A stretch of DNA of 64,000 bases from Syntrophorhabdaceae bacterium (GTDB lineage: Bacteria; Desulfobacterota; Syntrophorhabdia; Syntrophorhabdales; Syntrophorhabdaceae): the NCBI GenBank assembly GCA_963665295.1, contig OY762209.1, positions 1,760,001-1,824,000 on the forward strand. The letters run 5' to 3'. A program made the position numbers and the translations under genes. This document shows positions 4,351 through 57,422 of the stretch, piece by piece. Each line of letters begins with the position of its first letter. Position 1 is the stretch's first letter. The notes beneath the pieces are model-generated. The model was not told the DNA's origin, ran no database searches, and saw nothing but the letters and a program-made list of their open reading frames with translations.

Positions 4351-4881
4351 ATGAAAACGGTTGAAGGGACACTGAAGGAAATCTACAAGCACTCCCTGGA
4401 AATGCTGAAGCATGCGGAAACGAAGAACGCCGCCCTCATTTCCTTTAACGGGGTGATAATCATCGTCCTCATCAAGATGGCCGTGGATTTCAAGGATTAC
4501 ACCTTCTTTTTCTACTATTTCTGCTTTACCATCGCCGTCTGTTGCGTGTCCACATTCCTCAGCCTCACTTCCCTTGTGGCCCAGCTTAAGGACAAGGAGA
4601 ATGAACTGGAACTGCCTGAAGACGCGAACCTTATGTTTTTCGGCAATATCGCCCATTTTTCCCCGGAAGAACTCCTCAAGACCCTCAAGTCCAGATATAA
4701 CCTCCGGAGTAAAGACGACAACTACGAGAGAGACCTCGCCCGGGCGGTCATTGTTACTGCCCAGATCGCCAAAAGGAAACACAAGACCTTCAATACGGCC
4801 ATGGCCTGGACCTTCTCGGGGGTAGCCACCCCGCTGAGTGTTTTGATCTATAAGCTATTCTTCGATCCGAACCGGAAATAA
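4351..4881 (+). CDS. Pycsar-effector-like (PycTM/DUF5706) membrane protein
   Basis: AETKNAALISFNG, two TM helices, NLMFFGNIA, DLARAVIVTAQIAKRK, C-terminal TM. Confidence 0.7.
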   Translation: MKTVEGTLKEIYKHSLEMLKHAETKNAALISFNGVIIIVLIKMAVDFKDYTFFFYYFCFTIAVCCVSTFLSLTSLVAQLKDKENELELPEDANLMFFGNIAHFSPEELLKTLKSRYNLRSKDDNYERDLARAVIVTAQIAKRKHKTFNTAMAWTFSGVATPLSVLIYKLFFDPNRK

Positions 4882-24098: not shown

Positions 24099-24638
24099 AT
24101 GTCCGTGAATGTTTTACGAATGGTTTTGTGTTTAATTGTAGCCTTATCGGCAGGTTGCGTGACAAAAGCACCAGAGTGGCCTCCGTATGTAGTCGATAAC
24201 ATGTGGATCCCCAAGAATGCCTTAGTCGGTACTCGCGACAGTCGCAGTTCCTATAAAGTATTCTATACAGTAAACATGTGCTACCCGGCAAAGGATCTAA
24301 TAAGTGAAATGGCGAAAACCATGACGGCTAAAGGTTGGAGGAGGCTATCTTTAGATCCCGTCAACCCATCCATCGAACTGAAGCTAAATCACGCACTGGG
24401 GCCTGACGGCAACTGGAGTCACGGCGTTGATCCCAACATGGTTGCAGGGTATGATTGGAGAGAGTTTTGGGAAGATGGCGATAAGAATGTCATTCACTAT
24501 GTTTTCAAATATAAACTGGGGGAAAATGAACATATTGAGAATGCCTGCACGCTTTCAGGGTATACATCATACATGTCGGCAGAACAGGTTCATGCATTAC
24601 TAAAGGCTTTCCAAGAGATGCCCATTACGCCGCCATGA
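24099..24638 (+). CDS. Lipoprotein of unknown function
   Basis: GAGGAG RBS; lipobox LSAG-C. Confidence 0.7.
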   Translation: MSVNVLRMVLCLIVALSAGCVTKAPEWPPYVVDNMWIPKNALVGTRDSRSSYKVFYTVNMCYPAKDLISEMAKTMTAKGWRRLSLDPVNPSIELKLNHALGPDGNWSHGVDPNMVAGYDWREFWEDGDKNVIHYVFKYKLGENEHIENACTLSGYTSYMSAEQVHALLKAFQEMPITPP

Positions 24639-49199: not shown

Positions 49200-50693
49200 A
49201 TGATACGCGGAACTTCGAGTCTTACAGTCACGAGTGAACTATCATATTTGCCTGCAATACAGGCTTTCGCACGAGAGTTTGCAAGGGAAACAGGATTCGG
49301 CGGCAATGATCAGGAAATGATCGTTCTGGCCCTTGAGGAGGCTGTTACAAATGTAATCGAGCACGCCTTCGAGTCCGGGGAGCAGCCATTTCAGATTATC
49401 TTCAAGCCCTCGACAGGGGGTATCGAGATCATAGTTAAAGACATGGGCTTGCCTTACGATCTTAGCCTCCTCCCCAAATACGAAGCGCCTACGGACATTG
49501 AGGGGATGCCTTCCAGAGGCCTCGGATCTCTTATCATGGGGAAATGTGTTGACGAGGTGTTTCTCTGTAACCTGGGAAAGGGAGGGAAAGAACTGCATCT
49601 CGTTAAACGCCTACCGGTCAGGAGCGTCGTGGAACTGGTTGAGTGTCCGGAACCTGGCCCGTCTCGGAAACCCGTCGCCGACAAGGATGTGCCCGACTCG
49701 TCCTCTTCAGTTGAGTTGAGGTTGATGAAGTCCTCCGAAGCACTGGAAGTATCCAAGCTCTTCTATCGGGCATACGGGTATTCATACCTGTCGGACGTGA
49801 TGTACTACCCGGAAAGGCTTGCCGAGTACAATCGGGAAGGTCTCATCACTTCGATTGTCGCAGTATCTGAAGAAGGGGAAATTGTCGGACACCTGGCCAT
49901 GACCAGGGAAAAGCGTGACGATACGGTGGCTGAAGCGGGAAAAGGCGCGGTGAAACCAAGCTTCAGGGGCAAAGATATCTTCACGGGGATGCAAAGACTT
50001 CTTAACGACACAGCCAAAGCCATGGGAATCAGGGCCCTTTACGGGAGGGCGGTCACGGTTCATAGCGCTACACAGAAGATGGTGGAGAAGACGGGCTACA
50101 AATTGTGCGGGGTGGTTCTCGGTTACGCTCCGGCTGATATGGCGTTCAAGGGGATCCAGGAGCAACTCTCCCAGCGGGAAAGCCTGATATATTGTTTTCA
50201 GCCCGTCGTTGAGCTGCCGGTCACATCGGTGTTCCTCCCTTCCCATCACGAGGCCATCTTACGCCGGATATACTCGCATCTCGGCCTGACCAGGAATTTC
50301 CACACACCATTCGAAATAGTTCCGGTGGCGGACCTGTCGGTAATGGAAGTGAAGGTGTATTCCGAAATAAACAGTGCGGAGATCGTGGTTCGCCAATATG
50401 GCAAGGATGTTATAAGAGTCCTTCGGGACCACCTGAGAGACCTTTGCGCCAAAAGAATTGATCATTTTACTCTCTTCCTGGATTTGGGGGACCAGGCAAC
50501 GGCCCTCATGTGTGAAGAGATAGAAAGACTGGGATTCTTCATGGGCGGGATCATCCCTTGCCTTCACTTTGAAGACACGCTGATACTCCAATACCTGAAT
50601 AACCTGATTGTCGATCCTTCCAAGATAAAACTGCATTCCCCTATGGTAAAGGAAATTGTCGCCTACGTTAATGACCACATCGGCGGGAAATAG
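49200..50693 (+). CDS. Anti-sigma-type HATPase plus GNAT-fold protein
   Basis: LALEEAVTNVIEHA, DxG, GLG; V.PSFRGK; GGAGAGG RBS. Confidence 0.8.
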   Translation: MIRGTSSLTVTSELSYLPAIQAFAREFARETGFGGNDQEMIVLALEEAVTNVIEHAFESGEQPFQIIFKPSTGGIEIIVKDMGLPYDLSLLPKYEAPTDIEGMPSRGLGSLIMGKCVDEVFLCNLGKGGKELHLVKRLPVRSVVELVECPEPGPSRKPVADKDVPDSSSSVELRLMKSSEALEVSKLFYRAYGYSYLSDVMYYPERLAEYNREGLITSIVAVSEEGEIVGHLAMTREKRDDTVAEAGKGAVKPSFRGKDIFTGMQRLLNDTAKAMGIRALYGRAVTVHSATQKMVEKTGYKLCGVVLGYAPADMAFKGIQEQLSQRESLIYCFQPVVELPVTSVFLPSHHEAILRRIYSHLGLTRNFHTPFEIVPVADLSVMEVKVYSEINSAEIVVRQYGKDVIRVLRDHLRDLCAKRIDHFTLFLDLGDQATALMCEEIERLGFFMGGIIPCLHFEDTLILQYLNNLIVDPSKIKLHSPMVKEIVAYVNDHIGGK

Positions 50694-50857
50694 GGGACAG
50701 GGATGTCCATTAAACTATCAAATAAGCCATACTATAGCCTTTCTGTACCCCTAAGATGATGCACCGCCCCTGCGGCACCAATGCGAGCTTTTCTCGGCAT
50801 GAAGATATCAGGGGGAGCACGGATGTCAAATGAATGTGATTATTTAATGGCCGTCCC
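50691..50857 (-). mobile_element. Internally deleted RAYT derivative 1 (MITE-like)
   Basis: Promoter + MPRKARIGAAGAVHHL joined to KGYSMAYLIV*; end IRs GGGATGTCCATTAAA / TTTAATGGCCGTCCC. Confidence 0.8.
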
Positions 50858-50887
50858 TAATGTACCCTAATGTACCCTAATGTACCC
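50858..50887 (+). repeat. TAATGTACCC x3 tandem repeat
   Basis: Three perfect 10-bp copies abutting the RAYT-type end. Confidence 0.9.
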
Positions 50888-51413
50888 TTTTAATGGACGT
50901 TATATATTCCCATGCATTCACACCAGACTCCGGAGCATAGCAGAAAAAAAGGTTTTTTATCAGACTACCAAAAAATGAGACCCCCTGTTAAGATTGAAGT
51001 TCCACCAACAAACTCAACCAGGAGGTCTCAGATGAAACAAAAAGATGATAGCAGGTTGAAGGAATTTCGTCAATTGAAGCGCGAGATTCGCGGCTCCAGG
51101 GAGTATCTGGTGATCGGCATAGACATCGCGAAGGAGCGCCACCATGCCTTCTTCGGCATGCCCACAGGAAAGACCCTTTTGCGAAGGCTTGTATTCGATA
51201 ATACGAGAGAAGGCTTTGAAAGCCTCTGTCTCCATGCGGATACCCTTGCAAAACAGTACGATCTTAAGAAGGTCGTCTTCGGCATGGAGCCTACGGCAGA
51301 CTATCATAAACCTCTCGCTGAGTATCTCATAGGGCAGGGACATATGGTGAGTTAGGATGGATATAGTGGACACCATATGCGGTACAATATGGATACATAA
51401 CGGAGGTGTCCGA

Positions 51414-51722
51414 GTGGCAAAGATTCCCAGAGGAGTGTTTACAAAAGAGTTCAAAGAGGAAGCGGTAAGAATGGTGACGGAGGGCGGTCTCGGCATACCT
51501 GAGGTAGGCAGAAGACTGTCACTTGCGAAGTCAACCCTCGCTCGGTGGGTAGCCCAGGCAAAAAGGGGCGGCCTTGTGGTAACGCGAGGTCAGGCGACGG
51601 ACCAGGACATGGAAGTGGCCCGCCTGAAGCGTGAGATAGCTGAGCTCAAGATGGAGCGCGATATTTTAAAAAACGCGACCGCGTACTTTGCCAGAGAGTC
51701 GCTCAAAGGTACGCGATCGTGA
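51414..51722 (+). CDS. IS3 OrfA
   Basis: FTKEFKEEAV HTH, leucine zipper ERDILK. Confidence 0.9.
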   Translation: MAKIPRGVFTKEFKEEAVRMVTEGGLGIPEVGRRLSLAKSTLARWVAQAKRGGLVVTRGQATDQDMEVARLKREIAELKMERDILKNATAYFARESLKGTRS

Positions 51723-52579
51723 AAATCCTGCGACTCAAATATCCCCTTGCCCTTCTCTGTCAGGTACTCGAAGTATCTCGAAGCGGTTACTATGCATGGT
51801 TTAACCGCCCGCTTTCGCGACGCGCCCAGGAGGAAGAACGGCTGGAGATAGAGATAAAAGCTGCTCACAAAAGAACCCGGAAGACCTGCGGTCCCGAGAG
51901 ACTGCAAAAGGATCTTGCCGGGCATGGCGTAAAGGTGGGCATCTCAAGGATCAGACGGATAAGGAAGAGGCTCGGTATACGGTGTAAACAAGTGAAGAAG
52001 TACAAAACCACCACAGACTCGAATCATTCGCTCCCCGTGGCGGAGAACATCCTTGATCAGGATTTTACCGTGGAGGCTCCCGACGAGGTGTGGGTCAGCG
52101 ATATCACCTACATCCCTACCGATGAGGGCTGGCTCTACTGTGCCGCCCACAAGGACCTTTTTACCGGGGAGATCGTGGGCTACGCCCTGGGGGCGAGAAT
52201 GACCAGGGAGCTTGTGCTTAGGTCTCTCATAAGAGCAGTGGCAGTAAGAAAGCCACCGAAAGGCCTGATCCACCACTCGGATCGGGGAAGCCAGTACTGC
52301 TCTACTGAATATCAGAGACTACTCCTGCAGTTCGGCATGAAAGCTTCAATGAGCAGAAGGGGCAACTGCTACGACAACGCGCCCATGGAAAGCTTCTGGG
52401 GTACGTTGAAAAATGAGCTTATCCATCACCGTAATTACCATACGAGGGATGAGGCGACCGGGGAGATTACCGAGTATATAGAAGTCTTCTATAACCGGGA
52501 GAGGCGCCAGAAACGGCTCGACTATTTATCTCCTGCGGCATACGCAAGAAGATACTATGCCCAGAAAAGGGCGGCGTGA
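51719..52579 (+). CDS. IS3 OrfB DDE transposase
   Basis: WVSDITY, HHSDRGSQY, GNCYDNAPMESFW. Confidence 0.93.
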   Translation: MKILRLKYPLALLCQVLEVSRSGYYAWFNRPLSRRAQEEERLEIEIKAAHKRTRKTCGPERLQKDLAGHGVKVGISRIRRIRKRLGIRCKQVKKYKTTTDSNHSLPVAENILDQDFTVEAPDEVWVSDITYIPTDEGWLYCAAHKDLFTGEIVGYALGARMTRELVLRSLIRAVAVRKPPKGLIHHSDRGSQYCSTEYQRLLLQFGMKASMSRRGNCYDNAPMESFWGTLKNELIHHRNYHTRDEATGEITEYIEVFYNRERRQKRLDYLSPAAYARRYYAQKRAA

Positions 52580-53571
52580 GAGACATTATTGGTGTCCACT
52601 ATTGACATCGGGGGTCATGGTGGCGCTTGTAGGAGGCGCTGCGGTAAAGAAGAACCGGGAGCTCCTCGATGGACGATGGGATAAACACGATACCAAGGAT
52701 GCCGCGAATGTGGCCGATCTCATTACCCAGGGGAAGTGCCTCTACTATGATCTTCCTTCTCCCGATATAAGAAGCCTAAGAAACCTCCTCTCTTTGTTGA
52801 GACGTCTTAAGAAACAGGAGCAGGGGTATAAGGTAAGGATCAGGAATCACCTTATCGCCCGTTTCTTCCCCGAGATGGATGAGCATTTCCATCACAGTGA
52901 AGGACCGGCCATTGTGAAATGGTGCCTCGATCCGAAAGAGATTACCGCCCTTCCTTTTGAAGAATTCTTTCGTATGGTCTCCCAGGGAAGAGAGAAACAG
53001 CGGATGAGGATACAAGCGATCCATAACAAGGCGGCATCCTCCATAGGCTGTGAGGTGACCCCGAGCGTCCCCTTCGAAGCACGGATGCTCCTTAAGGGGC
53101 TGGAGGAGATCCGTGCCATGGTGCAGGCAACGGACGGGGCAATTGCCAAAGCATGCGCCGGGCTTCCCGAGTACGACTGTCTCCTGAGCATCCCCGGGTT
53201 CGGCCCCCGCATCTCTGCAATGGTACTCGGAGCAATAGGCAATCCCTATAGATTCGAAAATGAGCGCCAGGTGCTTAAGATGGCGGGACTCGATCTCTCT
53301 AAGAACCAGAGCGGGAAGAGCGAGGGTATCCCCGTCATCTCCAAGAAAGGCAAGGCCGATCTCCGATATGGTCTCTACCAGGCGGCGCTTGTCGCCTCTA
53401 CTGCGAATCATCGCCTCATGGCGTACTTTACGGGAAAGCTCCATGGCAGGGAACGGGAGAAAGGGATCGCCACCAAGATGAGGGTGAAGCTCTCCGCAAA
53501 GATGCTGGTCATTGCATGGACCTTGATGAAGAAGAAGGAGATGTTTGATCCGGACATAATGAAGTGAAAGA

Positions 53572-53754
53572 TTATTACCGGCGAGAGAGCCCGTGAATGG
53601 GCGTAGAGGCATATGACCTCGTGGGGGACAATAAAGGGCCTCTCACCAGAATCATGCAACCTGGATAAAGGATGATGGGTGGCCTTAGTGCACACCGGAT
53701 AATGATAACGCTGAGGTGCGGGTTCGCGGTACGGTGAGAATAACCGCCGGATAA
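53572..53754 (+). ncRNA. Putative IS110 bridge/seek RNA
   Basis: Enclosing stem CCGGCG/CGCCGG; loop with AATGGGCGT and GGGGAC matches the insertion target; second loop with AGGATG and ATAAC matches the donor junction. Confidence 0.7.
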
Positions 53755-53937
53755 GAAGGAAGAGAGGACGGGAGGGGTGTGTACTCGTGAAGGTCGTTAT
53801 GAATAAGGGGCTGATATTATTGGCAGTCTGTCGTATTGAAATTAGCTGTTGACAGGAGGATTATAGGATGTCCCTGATGTACCACGACCGGGATCATATC
53901 GAGAGTCGGCCGTAAGTTATGGAGGTCCCCTTCCCTC

Positions 53938-54321
53938 CTAGTAGTGGTCAGCTGAATTTTTCCCAAATTTCCCTTTGTTAGCCTCATAAAACAACTGGTA
54001 TTGAAATCTTCCTTTTGCATCGTAGACATTCATGTACACAAAAGAACTGTCGTCGCGCTTTTCATTATGTTGTTCGTCCCAAAAGAACGTCCTATAGATC
54101 TTAATTAGTTCATCTTCAGCGGGTATTGACCCTTTCTTGCATTGGACCGTGATATAAATCTCCGGTTCCAACGCAAAACTAAACCTATCCCCGTATTGTT
54201 TCTCCATATTATCCAATCGCCGGATATCTTCTGGAGTTGCACGGCTACAGGAAGTCGCAACGAGCAGTATCAACGTGAGCACCGCAATTCTTAGCATCAC
54301 CGGGAGATTCGTATAGAACAT
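53938..54321 (-). CDS. Lipoprotein, immunity-like
   Basis: Lipobox VATS-C; AT-richer than core genes; preceded by a short ORF tail. Confidence 0.65.
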   Translation of the reverse strand: MFYTNLPVMLRIAVLTLILLVATSCSRATPEDIRRLDNMEKQYGDRFSFALEPEIYITVQCKKGSIPAEDELIKIYRTFFWDEQHNEKRDDSSFVYMNVYDAKGRFQYQLFYEANKGKFGKNSADHY

Positions 54322-54410
54322 GATAGCCTCGTTAGTAACCCTGATAGGGTTTTCTTGCCGCTGCGATACCTGCTTCGTTTGCGGTCAAATCACTCCACTG
54401 AAATGCCCAA

Positions 54411-54630
54411 GGGGGCACAGGGACGCCCATCAAACCATCAAATCATCCATGCTATAGCCATTCTCTCTCACCAGGGCTTCGCCTCTTGCGACTGCAATGC
54501 TTACTGCGGGCTGACCCATACCTAGCCTCCCGGCCACTGCCGTTGCGGTCATGTGAAGCCGTCTTACGGTATCAGGGAGGGGTACGGATGTCAAGGAAAG
54601 TTCATTAGCTAATGCCCCCCTAATGTCCCC
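54411..54630 (-). mobile_element. Internally deleted RAYT derivative 2
   Basis: TTGACA-17-TACCGT joined to an HTH tail (VAGRLGMGQPAVSIAVARGEALVRENGY); end TTTGATGGGCGTCCC. Confidence 0.8.
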
Positions 54631-54646
54631 TCTATGGGTTTGTCGC

Positions 54647-55102
54647 CTATGGGTTCGCCGGTTCCATACGTTCCAACTTCAGTTCCTTTCTGCTTGGCAC
54701 TGGGGAAATTCTCTCTATATCTGTCAGACCGCCGGAGTATATGTCCGGGGCGCTCTTGGGTTTGGCCTTAAAGGTACCCTGCACCAATATATACTGTTCG
54801 TTGAATTTTCTTGCATCCGGAAATTTGCCAATATGGATTCTAACGGCATTCTTCATTAGAAGATATTCGAAATCTTCACGGTGAAAATACAAGGCATTGC
54901 TTTCGAAATCTAAGCAGAGATAACCAAAAGTAGTAACCTCTTTGCCGTGATAAACGTGAGGGTTCGCCATGAGATCAACCATTGATGCCAAATATCCAGT
55001 GGGAGGACTCTCGCCGTAAGGTAATGTGTTGAAGGACGCACAGGAAAAGAGAGACATTCCCACCCATGAAATGCAACCTACCAGAACCAGGAATCTTTTC
55101 AT
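54647..55102 (-). CDS. Lipoprotein of unknown function
   Basis: Lipobox LFS-C; GGAGAGG RBS. Confidence 0.65.
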   Translation of the reverse strand: MKRFLVLVGCISWVGMSLFSCASFNTLPYGESPPTGYLASMVDLMANPHVYHGKEVTTFGYLCLDFESNALYFHREDFEYLLMKNAVRIHIGKFPDARKFNEQYILVQGTFKAKPKSAPDIYSGGLTDIERISPVPSRKELKLERMEPANP

Positions 55103-56107: not shown

Positions 56108-56240
56108 TTGTCCCCTTCTTCTATTTTCACCACTTGCGAGGTATCGTCCCACTCACTGCCCCAGGCACCCCGAAACCATAGGCGTGCTGCCAACCACATA
56201 GGCTTTGGGCTTTGGCAACGACCGTAAATAACTAAATAAC

Positions 56241-57212
56241 TCATAGTACATAGCCCTTCTCACGAGCAATCCTCTCCCCCCGTTCAACTGCGTATCCTAT
56301 CCCCGGCGGAGTCATGTTGAGAAATCGGGCGATCCGGGCCGCAGGAAATCGTCCGTGGAGATGAGCCCAGAAGCAGAAAAGACTTCGAGCTTCCACCACG
56401 GCAGACCTGCGGCTTCCACTGCCGAGACTCTCGAGGGTAATGCCATAGAGCTCGCGGACCCGTCCGGCGAGATAATCGAGGGTCGGACCTTCCGGGTCGG
56501 CCGTGATGCGGCGGGGTTCTCCGGTAAGCATCCTCTGAACAAAATCGCTGTCTCCCAGTATGCGTTCATCGCCTTTTACGCGTTGACCGGTCTTTTTCAC
56601 CGCTGCCCACGAACCATAACTTCTTATCAGTCCGCCGCCTACCAGGTCAGGCCTCTTCCCTCTGAGAAGTCGGTTCTCCATCGAGGAAAGGTATGCCTCT
56701 CGTGCAGTCTTCAGGCCGAAATAACGGAGCACGTAGTCCGTATCCTGCCATGGATGAAGGACCTCGCCCATGAGGACGGCATGACCGGAGTAAGGGTAGG
56801 TTGAAAGCCCCGCAAGGTCCTTGATGATTCCTGCCCTTATGGGATTGAGATGAATATATAAGACCAGTTCGGTGAGATAGGCGTCTTCCTGACAGAGAAT
56901 CGACTTGTATCGATTCTGAAAGAGTTGGCCATGGCGGTGATATTTTTTATTGAAGGTGACTGCATGACCCGTAAGAAGACGGGCCATGACTGTGTGGAGA
57001 GGAGTCTCGCCTGTTTTGAGCAAAAGGTGGGCGTGATTGCCGAGGAGCGCCCATGCGTAACAGGGAGTGTGGGTGTCGTCGAATATCTTCCCCATCCGCT
57101 CCGCAAAACGGTCTCTGTCACTATTATCACGGAAGATTAACCGTCGCTCGATGCCACGGACAATTATATGGTGGAGCACACCTTCGGCGTCCAGACGGGC
57201 ATGGCGCGGCAT
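56241..57212 (-). CDS. REP-associated-type tyrosine transposase (Y1 HUH) with C-terminal DnaA-like HTH
   Basis: MPRxAR, HHIIVRG, NHAHLL (HUH), FQNRYKS, YIHLNP, YPYSGH, C-terminal HTH. Confidence 0.9.
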   Translation of the reverse strand: MPRHARLDAEGVLHHIIVRGIERRLIFRDNSDRDRFAERMGKIFDDTHTPCYAWALLGNHAHLLLKTGETPLHTVMARLLTGHAVTFNKKYHRHGQLFQNRYKSILCQEDAYLTELVLYIHLNPIRAGIIKDLAGLSTYPYSGHAVLMGEVLHPWQDTDYVLRYFGLKTAREAYLSSMENRLLRGKRPDLVGGGLIRSYGSWAAVKKTGQRVKGDERILGDSDFVQRMLTGEPRRITADPEGPTLDYLAGRVRELYGITLESLGSGSRRSAVVEARSLFCFWAHLHGRFPAARIARFLNMTPPGIGYAVERGERIAREKGYVL

Positions 57213-57246: not shown

Positions 57247-57422
57247 GGGTTATTTACTTATTTACGGTCGTCCCCCAATGTTCCGGTGGAGAGGGGGTAA
57301 CAGTTTAGTCCTCTCGGAACTTTTTCCAGCAAAATATTATGTCTAATTTCCACAAAACCTTTGATTTCCTTGTTCCATGATGGTATTATAATAGGAGTAC
57401 TACTACTCAGTCGGAGGGTTCA

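Follow-up and report, generated by a model that had tools for sequence, protein, structure and literature searches.

How does an insertion sequence (IS) find its landing site when that site is the end of another mobile element? The question is raised by a locus of a Syntrophorhabdaceae bacterium (Desulfobacterota; assembly GCA_963665295.1), at which an IS110-family element interrupts the end of a Y1/RAYT-like transposon. A stretch of 64,000 nt of contig OY762209.1 (positions 1,760,001 to 1,824,000, forward strand) was analyzed; it is called the window here, and coordinates refer to it unless stated otherwise. An earlier note, written from the sequence of the window, had proposed that an IS110 lineage with a GT core carries a 3' bridge RNA programmed against the termini of another mobile system. 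The junctions, the covariation of guides and targets among homologues, and the identity of the target support this proposal. We assign a probability of about 0.88 to the reading that the element picks its site via a bridge RNA, which is encoded behind the recombinase gene and has its target loop set to Y1/RAYT-like ends.

The element is an IS110-family insertion sequence located at 50901-53871 and flanked by GT on either side. Its features, as given in the following, lie on the forward strand, and all motifs named in the earlier note were found in the sequence where they had been placed. The left junction reads TTTAATGGAC-GT-TATATATT at 50889-50908 (in a longer reading TTTAATGGAC-GT-TATATATTCCC), with the left copy of GT at 50899-50900, and the right junction reads TATAGGAT-GT-CCCTGATGTACC (in a longer reading GGATTATAGGAT-GT-CCCTGATGTACC), with the right copy at 53870-53871. 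The two junctions share GT alone, as the preceding bases are C and T and the following bases T and C, respectively. A target duplication limited to such a short core is typical of the IS110 family, and the same is seen in the homologues. The left target (LT), TTTAATGGAC at 50889-50898, is the inner part of the duplicated transposon end, and the right target (RT), CCCTGATGTACC at 53872-53883, starts with CCCT, the outermost tip of that end. The non-coding ends of the element comprise 131 nt on the left (50901-51031, beginning with TATATA) and 304 nt on the right, including the right-end tip TTGACAGGAGGATTATAGGAT (53849-53869), which contains TTGACA.

The recombinase gene is present in two pieces. 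The N-terminal piece (51032-51347) encodes profile positions 1-70 of the DEDD/RuvC-like domain (DEDD_Tnp_IS110, PF01548, 43.2 bits), and the C-terminal piece (52621-53567), which runs to the stop codon, encodes the rest of this domain (positions 75-150, 26 bits) and Transposase_20 (PF02371, 73.5 bits), so that both domains expected of the IS110 family are present. The top match is the model NF033542, "IS110 family RNA-guided transposase", with a score below the cut-off because the gene is split, and the C-terminal piece matches the structure of IS621 (8wt6, E 1e-9). The interruption is caused by an IS3-family element, and the window copy is dead. After subtraction of the IS3 insert and its duplication the IS110-type element has a length of 1698 bp.

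About 90 homologous loci were gathered in total. A protein search of 61 related genomes, the own genome included, yielded matches with E<=1e-20 in 16 of them, and a collection of species-representative genomes contributed 78 loci with 46-83% identity, most of which stem, according to the record titles, from metagenome-assembled genomes (MAGs) of Desulfobacterota- and Nitrospirota-type bacteria. Every alignable copy begins with GT-TATATATT and ends with TTGACAGGAGGAnTATAGGAT-GT. The GT core recurs at the ends of the homologues (...TATAGGAT-GT and GT-TATATA), and the right-end motif is found in 64 of the 79 loci with a match that reaches the C-terminus. Because the sequences diverge past these conserved ends, the element boundaries and the GT core are fixed. 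Searches of the own genome with DNA, protein and RNA model found gene and RNA only once (the second match of the RNA model had just 16.5 bits, E 0.275), and therefore insertion sites could not be compared within the genome.

The bridge RNA begins ten bases past the recombinase stop codon. It comprises 173 nt (53578-53750, enclosed by the outer helix P1), has a covariance-model score of 162.6 bits, and contains two internal loops, of which the first is the target loop and the second the donor loop. The left target guide (LTG), TGAATGGGCGT at 53594-53604, forms the 5' side of the target loop and includes AATGGGCGT (53596-53604). It has the sense of the top strand and would pair with the bottom strand, and its last two bases equal the core. 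The 3' side is the right target guide (RTG), GTGGGGGAC at 53621-53629, with GGGGAC at 53624-53629; it is the reverse complement of the core plus the right target. Thus, the loop of a structured non-coding RNA matches both target strands, as expected for a bridge RNA. Nine of the eleven LTG bases are identical to the left flank plus core, TTAATGGACGT, and one more position is a wobble, in which a guide G opposite a target A amounts to a bottom-strand G:T. The RTG, read as its reverse complement GTCCCCCAC, agrees with GTCCCTGAT in the core and three further bases, followed by one wobble.

Covariation of guides and targets among homologues had been suggested as a check, and it was found on both sides. 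Left ends were called from the end motif alone, blind to the guide, for the final LTG comparison. In 37 unique pairs of an LTG and its own left flank 254 of 333 positions agree by identity or wobble; shuffled pairings gave a mean of 175.4 (sd 7.9, maximum 208), and none of 20,000 reached the observed value. For the RTG and the own right flank, 52 unique pairs gave 211 of 260 agreeing positions, compared to a mean of 163.3 in shuffled pairings (sd 5.5, maximum 185), again with 0 of 20,000 reaching the observed value. Agreement per position exceeds the expectation over about eight bases to the left of the core and four to the right. The individual matches include unrelated sites that are not palindromic: L033 has GGCTTAGT on the left and GTTCTCCAC on the right (9/9), and L007 and L006 match in 10/11 and 9/11 positions, respectively. 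L044 and L070 both match in 10/11. That the guides repeat their flanks in two senses would not be explained by shared ancestry alone. The match of the target loop with the insertion site, read earlier from a single copy, is therefore more than chance. The core is mirrored in the guides as well, as the LTG ends with GT in at least 90% of the rows of a 54-sequence alignment and the RTG ends with an invariant AC. In three members of one Nitrospirota subclade (L020, L049, L069) GAT replaces CGT at the LTG end (alignment columns 28-30), and in L049 the right donor guide is altered, too; the core or its register may have shifted in this subclade.

The conserved stretch behind the gene has a length of 166-208 nt across the copies and a mean column identity of 66% in the 54-sequence alignment, from which RNAalifold predicted 25 pairs, 13 of them with compensatory changes. 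When a six-helix structure was laid on the MAFFT alignment, 90.2% of the cells were paired and 19 of 30 pairs had changed on both sides; none of 500 column shuffles was as good, and slid controls paired at 34-55%. The covariance model found the RNA in 79 places among the loci, with 96.8% of the cells paired and 28 of 30 pairs compensatory, values that come from a model-fitted alignment and are biased towards the model. Helix P1 (53578-53583 with 53745-53750), which was misaligned by MAFFT, was found by a direct search in 57 of 57 sequences, with 5-11 bp and in 37 different versions. The target loop has a conserved closure of GCCC with GGGC and contains the hairpin GAGGC...GACCTC (53606-53620), in which 100% of the cells are paired. 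The donor-loop domain (53641-53739) is closed by TCTCAC (53641-53646) with GTGAGA (53734-53739), and four of these six pairs change on both sides. The same applies to three of four pairs in the inner donor helix (ACCT, 53659-53662, with AGGT, 53714-53717) and to five of six in the donor-loop hairpin (53678-53683 with 53690-53696). Conserved, covarying helices behind the gene, with loop sides that match the own flanks, thus bear out the 3' bridge RNA.

One helix had to be revised. The closure GAGCCC/GGGCCTC proposed in the earlier note holds for its GCCC/GGGC part. In contrast, the CTCTC part is compatible with pairing to GAGAG (97.5% paired) without any compensation (0 of 5 pairs), compared to 4 of 6 pairs with the downstream GTGAGA, and seven sequences with a C-to-U change would pair as G:U with GAGAG, but as a compensated U:A with the downstream partner. 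CTCTCAC (53640-53646) can pair with the 5' GAGAGAG (53584-53589) or the 3' GTGAGAG (53733-53739). Both partners are conserved, only the second covaries, and the double option may reflect two alternative folds.

The second loop matches the joined ends of the element, AGGAT-GT-TAT, as would be expected for a donor loop. The left donor guide (LDG), AAAGGATGA at 53667-53675, includes AGGATG (53669-53674) and corresponds to AGGAT of the right-end tip, extended by the first core base, and the right donor guide (RDG), TGATAAC at 53703-53709, contains ATAAC (53705-53709), the reverse complement of GT plus TAT at the left end. Both positions had been named before and were confirmed, and the arrangement was seen across the homologues: in every row the LDG agrees with the right-end tip, the RDG matches GT plus TAY, and loop and ends are nearly invariant in the family. 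In two instances LDG and tip have changed together (GGAAT with AGAAT in L078/L079, GGCAT with AGCAT in L031). At the second core position the LDG has A or C in nearly all rows, and there is no pairing.

What is the sequence that was hit? The 15-bp motif TTAATGGRCRTCCCT constitutes the terminal inverted repeat of both a RAYT-like transposon and the miniature elements derived from it, because copies of the motif are arranged as inverted pairs that enclose either a Y1_Tnp gene or gene-less units of about 160 bp. In the window it is located at 50699-50713 (reverse), 50844-50858 (forward) and 54419-54433 (reverse), and weakly at 24614; the motif and the three near copies reported previously are thus real, with coordinates that were one base off. 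Four matches with at most two mismatches compare to 0.49 expected, and 0 of 100 shuffles reached four. Genome-wide there are six exact copies and 15 with at most one mismatch. The pairs spaced by about 160 bp, e.g., 50699-50858, enclose two conserved subterminal stretches. An inverted pair of about 1 kb (genome positions 860435-861459) encloses the gene for a 316-aa Y1_Tnp protein (IS200-like, PF01797, 38.1 bits with a cut-off of 23), and another full-length copy is present near genome position 849000. The target is therefore the terminus of another mobile system, as had been claimed, and RAYT-like genes also adjoin the element in homologues. The label RAYT itself is loose. A gene between inverted, palindrome-bearing repeats (GGACGTCC), together with gene-less doublets of about 160 bp, agrees with it. 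However, the NCBIfam RAYT model NF047646 scores 57.8 bits, below its cut-off of 80. Furthermore, RAYT genes are single-copy and their repetitive extragenic palindromic sequences (REPs) high-copy, in contrast to four full-length genes in this genome, two near-identical and two about 44% identical, and 15 ends with at most one mismatch.

The surroundings of the insertion contain several remains of this transposon. A miniature derivative of about 160 bp (50699-50858) has inverted 15-bp ends, at 50699-50713 in reverse and at 50844-50858 in forward orientation, and keeps a remnant of the RAYT-like residues 1-23 (50800-50738, E 0.009). It is followed by a tandem repeat (50855-50888, forward strand) of CCCTAATGTA, with 3.4 copies of a 10-bp unit, 100% matches and a score of 68, and then by an extra, solo end copy. 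The IS110 element is inserted in this solo copy, beyond the tandem repeat and four bases from the tip, and an inverted copy of the target is present 190-192 bp to the left of the insertion site. The own end of the miniature element, which has a C where the guide needs A or G, was not hit. On the other side, a second decayed derivative (54419-54620, reverse strand) corresponds to residues 255-315 with 70% identity and retains a remnant of a C-terminal helix-turn-helix; its end, TTGATGGGCGTCCCT (54419-54433, reverse), fits the LTG better than the actual insertion site does. The uninterrupted sequence TTTAATGGACGTCCC, which corresponds to the empty site, is present five times in the genome, so that empty-site sequences, the absence of which would have spoken against the proposal, do exist. 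A search for the right flank (53872-54420) in the three other genomes of the genus gave no match, and an orthologous empty site was thus not recovered there.

Is the whole lineage aimed at such ends? Among 39 unique sites with both ends called, 29 carry GT plus CCC on the right, and xxAAC, xxGGAC or xxGGGC variants make up most of the left halves. A RAYT-like gene adjoins the left end of the IS in seven loci: in six of these (L045, L059, L063, L066, L070, L078) its start codon is located 53-55 nt from the left end, and in L072 its 3' end abuts the element. The site recurs in inverted orientation at a distance of 179-199 bp to the left in L010/L024, in L051 and in the window. In G013, the genome that contains L010, AACGTCCCY forms no fewer than 17 inverted pairs, with distances of 98-309 bp, mostly 140-230 bp, a spacing that is taken as the signature of miniature elements. 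This 9-mer is too short for target counts in five relatives, where controls were similar, and only the paired spacing in G013 is informative. In the loci with a RAYT-like neighbor or an inverted site copy the interior of the transposon lies on the left-guide side, an orientation that results from the asymmetry of the guides. The remaining ten sites are aimed at other sequences and include four or five copies in one Nitrospiraceae MAG. No tRNA or tmRNA gene was found at the alternative targets of L033, L035, L037, L050, L006, L007, L084 and L068. Five loci from this Nitrospiraceae MAG and one other MAG (L033, L035, L037, L038, L050) have sites of the form CCGG(C/T)TTA-GT-(T/C)CT, and their guides match.

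Several observations speak against an RNA-guided choice of transposon ends and have to be weighed. With its split recombinase gene the window copy cannot be active. Its guide is imperfect, with two wobbles and one mismatch at LT position -8, and an exact Watson-Crick target of this guide is absent from the own genome. The left flank is matched poorly in L004, L027 and L064 (6/11 each) and is unmatched in L060, where AT occupies the end defined by the motif. The donor loop hardly varies, so that two events account for its covariation, and kinship among the homologues means that the shuffle tests overstate independence. A search of Rfam with 50600-54700 at E<=1 gave no match, and a scan of 50850-53950 brought up no conspicuous promoter or terminator around the RNA (four promoter-like sites versus 2.7 expected, 0 terminators). 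In single-sequence folding, neither the 173 nt (z -1.19) nor the entire 3' region (z -0.15) did better than shuffles, and the comparative structure was not recovered, so that the fold is derived entirely from comparison. The insignificant fold, together with a partly palindromic target, which makes a short match to either half easier, might mean that the 3' region resembles the flanks by chance or because target DNA was captured, without any RNA guide. This is hardly credible, in view of the shuffled pairings on both sides, the covarying helices and the matches to targets that are not palindromic; moreover, a captured copy would not yield two halves in opposite senses separated by a conserved hairpin. 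A RAYT-like neighbor has been directly shown at only seven loci plus the window, and 10 of the 39 unique sites lack the GTCCC right half. Both points also bear on the idea that the element is aimed at a short, generic ACGT-centered palindrome like GGACGTCC and hits transposon ends merely because they carry it. The insertion site does contain this 8-bp palindrome, the majority of the sites have only GT plus CCC in common on the right, and 61 sites in the genome fit the guide with wobble, compared to 37 expected from the base composition. However, the LTG reads about 8 nt into the element-specific subterminal sequence, it varies by lineage together with the end variant (AATGGAC, AACAAC, AAGGGC, ATAGAC), and the start codon keeps its distance of 53-55 nt in six loci from different records, with the transposon interior always on the left. 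Therefore, a generic target seems quite improbable.

It is also unlikely, if somewhat less so, that the element is a canonical member of the IS1111 group with an IS1111-type seekRNA. Right-end bridge or seekRNAs have been described for this group (Siddiquee et al., 2024, PMC11187229; also in the sections of Durrant et al., 2024, PMC11208160, used here), and a short left end, a long non-coding right end and an RNA behind the gene are its layout. However, IS1111 subterminal repeats are usually 11-13 bp long, near perfect, and followed by terminal extensions of 7 and 3 nt (PMC11187229), in contrast to the repeat of the window element, TATATTCC/TATAATCC, which matches in 7 of 8 positions and is offset from the core by 2 and 4 nt; the repeats of 34 distinct end pairs comprise 5-9 nt. 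In addition, the guide that matches the bottom strand lies 5' of the guide that matches the top strand, and this order was reversed in the four IS1111 members tested (PMC11187229). The narrow definition of the IS110 group fits in part: bottom-strand guide first, top-strand guide second, and short donor-flanking repeats agree with it, but the RNA is not encoded in the left end upstream of the gene. Judged by its sequence the element is not a canonical IS1111 member and fits neither textbook layout fully, because an RNA behind the gene, as in IS1111, is combined with short repeats and the guide order of IS110. As such, a 3' RNA is not unheard of outside the canonical group, since some IS with short or absent subterminal repeats were noted to have a 3' non-coding region (Siddiquee et al., PMC11187229).

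How could a bridge RNA with its target loop set to Y1/RAYT-like ends direct insertion? Anatomy, conservation of the fold, matching of guides and flanks, and target identity stem from the comparisons above, and the steps of RNA-protein binding, strand exchange, circle formation, promoter use and RNA processing are modeled on experiments with IS621, ISEc11 and ISEc21. The element would be excised as a circle, in which its right and left ends are joined at GT. This would bring TTGACA (53849-53854) to a distance of 17 nt from TATATA (50901-50906), the would-be -10 element, and thereby form a promoter (TTGACA-17 nt-TATATA) that reads into the recombinase gene and then the RNA. Recombinase and RNA would share one transcript, with the RNA in the 3' part, and the RNA would have to be cut out of the mRNA, since the junction promoter reads the recombinase first and the RNA lies behind it. 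One loop of the RNA would hold the donor junction AGGAT-GT-TAT and the other the transposon end, with the target loop addressing a position four bases inside the tip of the 15-bp terminal inverted repeat. Strands would be exchanged by the DEDD recombinase at the shared GT, and as a result the inserted circle would be flanked by GT on either side, without any further duplication. A circle junction was not seen in the contigs of four sequencing runs (three samples, two studies), which possibly represent the source samples. These contigs show the same arrangement, including the IS3 element; none of them bridges the IS3 element or the whole IS110 element, and an empty site or intact form was not seen.

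The best-characterized comparison is IS621 (Durrant et al., 2024; structures 8wt6-8wt9), as described in the parts of that report considered here (PMC11208160). In common are the DEDD and Tnp domains, an RNA of some 175 nt in which the target loop precedes the donor loop, a 2-nt core duplicated at the junctions, short TATA-type subterminal repeats only, and a repeated extragenic natural target with tolerance for G:T wobble. The 5' loop side of IS621 pairs with 8-9 nt of the bottom strand and the 3' side with 4-7 nt of the top strand, and the natural target differs from the own loop by a G:T wobble; the window RNA is alike, with about 8-9 nt of the bottom strand, including the core, on the 5' side and about 4-6 nt of the top strand on the 3' side. 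The differences are that IS621 has its RNA in the left end and a CT core, compared to an RNA 3' of the gene and a GT core in the window element, and that the window RNA has the outer helix P1 around both loops. The solved proteins of IS621 and ISCro4 match the window recombinase over only about 90-120 residues (about 90 in the C-terminal domain for IS621). The IS1111 elements ISEc11, ISPa11 and ISKpn4 (Siddiquee et al., 2024, PMC11187229) share an RNA region downstream of the gene and target recognition on both strands, and a junction promoter and co-transcription are predicted for the window element as well; they differ in the reversed order of the target matches and in much longer subterminal repeats. 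A placement among named IS was tried with tblastn searches of plasmids; the top annotated relatives ("IS110 family", ISRel25 family) are about 30% identical, and the "IS110 family" elements on Klebsiella and Escherichia plasmids match just residues 191-314 (E about 5e-4), which is too distant to place the clade.

Insertion of IS110 elements into REPs and into the inverted repeats of other transposons is already in print, as far as the consulted parts of these reports go. The IS110/IS1111 elements described there in terminal inverted repeats of other mobile elements likewise have a fixed place and orientation, but their hosts are DDE transposons, in contrast to the Y1 (HUH) transposon with miniature derivatives in the window. 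In partial accounts ISPpu9/ISPpu10 and ISPa11 (PMC12288879, PMC8450116) are members of the IS110 family that insert in REPs of a RAYT/REP system, and a small RNA, Ssr9, is located downstream of the ISPpu9 transposase gene, the translation of which is regulated by a leader structure. The REPs are high-copy, unlike the low-copy ends of the Y1 element here, and this comparison was made by description only. Among the papers listed that contain both RAYT and IS110 (12 of 16, judged by titles and abstracts), none deals with an IS110-type element aimed at Y1 transposon ends. The mechanism is of a known kind and remains unchanged by our results; the lineage is undescribed. Tentatively, and with considerable reservation, the homologues may be viewed as a bridge-RNA clade of its own in Desulfobacterota- and Nitrospirota-type MAGs, with an IS110-type RNA in the IS1111-type position, which acts as an RNA-guided parasite of the Y1/RAYT-like family, tracks its end variants (AATGGAC, AACAAC, AAGGGC or ATAGAC before GT-CCCY), and is occasionally re-aimed at unrelated repeats.

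The value of this lineage lies in clean comparative evidence and in a mixed architecture, and not in a new mechanism. It provides a natural bridge RNA from outside the model organisms in which loop positions, guides of about 8+2+4 nt, the GT core and G:T wobbles can be read from the sequence, and about 75 distinct natural RNA variants, which represent natural re-programmings, back this reading. The IS110 guide order behind the gene indicates that the two textbook layouts are incomplete. In addition, it exemplifies how one selfish element settles, via an RNA guide, in the ends of another, which offer repeated and harmless landing sites.

The IS3-family element that splits the recombinase gene comprises 1270 bp (51348-52617) and encodes OrfA (51357-51722) and OrfB (51719-52579), with HTH_Tnp_1 and rve domains. 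It is flanked by a target duplication, TGG, at 51345-51347 and 52618-52620. The genome contains four copies with 100% identity, the 3-bp duplications of which all differ (TGG, AAG, GTA, AAC), and the element has been active recently.

A second RAYT-like gene is located at 56244-57212 on the reverse strand. Its product is about 44% identical to the 316-aa protein (PF01797, 34.9 bits) and has a weak DnaA-type helix-turn-helix at the C-terminus. The gene has the end variant TTTACGGTCGTCCCC; its inverted ends, near 56205-56235 and 57262-57285, read TTTACGGTCGT followed by CCCC or TGCC and would not fit the resident bridge RNA on the left. Moreover, AATGGACGTCCTC recurs at least five times in the genome outside the window (genome positions 716477, 755600, 782963, 904351, 967151); it may represent the end of another, target-related family of repeats.

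Both non-coding ends of the IS110 element contain additional features. In the left end, GAGACCCCCTG (50977-50987) is complementary to the ribosome-binding region of the recombinase gene (51018-51029). The resulting leader hairpin (folding z -1.8), which is comparable to the leader structure of ISPpu9, is partly kept in the homologues and could restrict translation. In the right end, GACGGGAGG/GACAGGAGG is present twice between the RNA and the tip, at 53760-53785 and 53851-53860; the repeat has the form GACAGGAGAGG in most homologues and may be a protein-binding site.

Some relatives deviate from the common arrangement. Four loci from Desulfatiglandales (L036, L026, L039, L041) contain a gene for a 323-aa DUF3991-Toprim protein between the recombinase gene and the bridge RNA (at 3580-4551 in L036, with the RNA at 4608-4790), a possible passenger inside the element. 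In L015, L016 and L017 the recombinases are only 26-29% identical and the RNA model matches weakly (23-37 bits), and the 3' RNA layout may thus extend well past this clade. Finally, L010 contains a solo left-end-like stretch, GGGAC-GT-TATATTGAATG (about 1020-1045, oriented), 70 nt upstream of the real left end, which may have been left as a scar when a previous element inserted into a transposon end.

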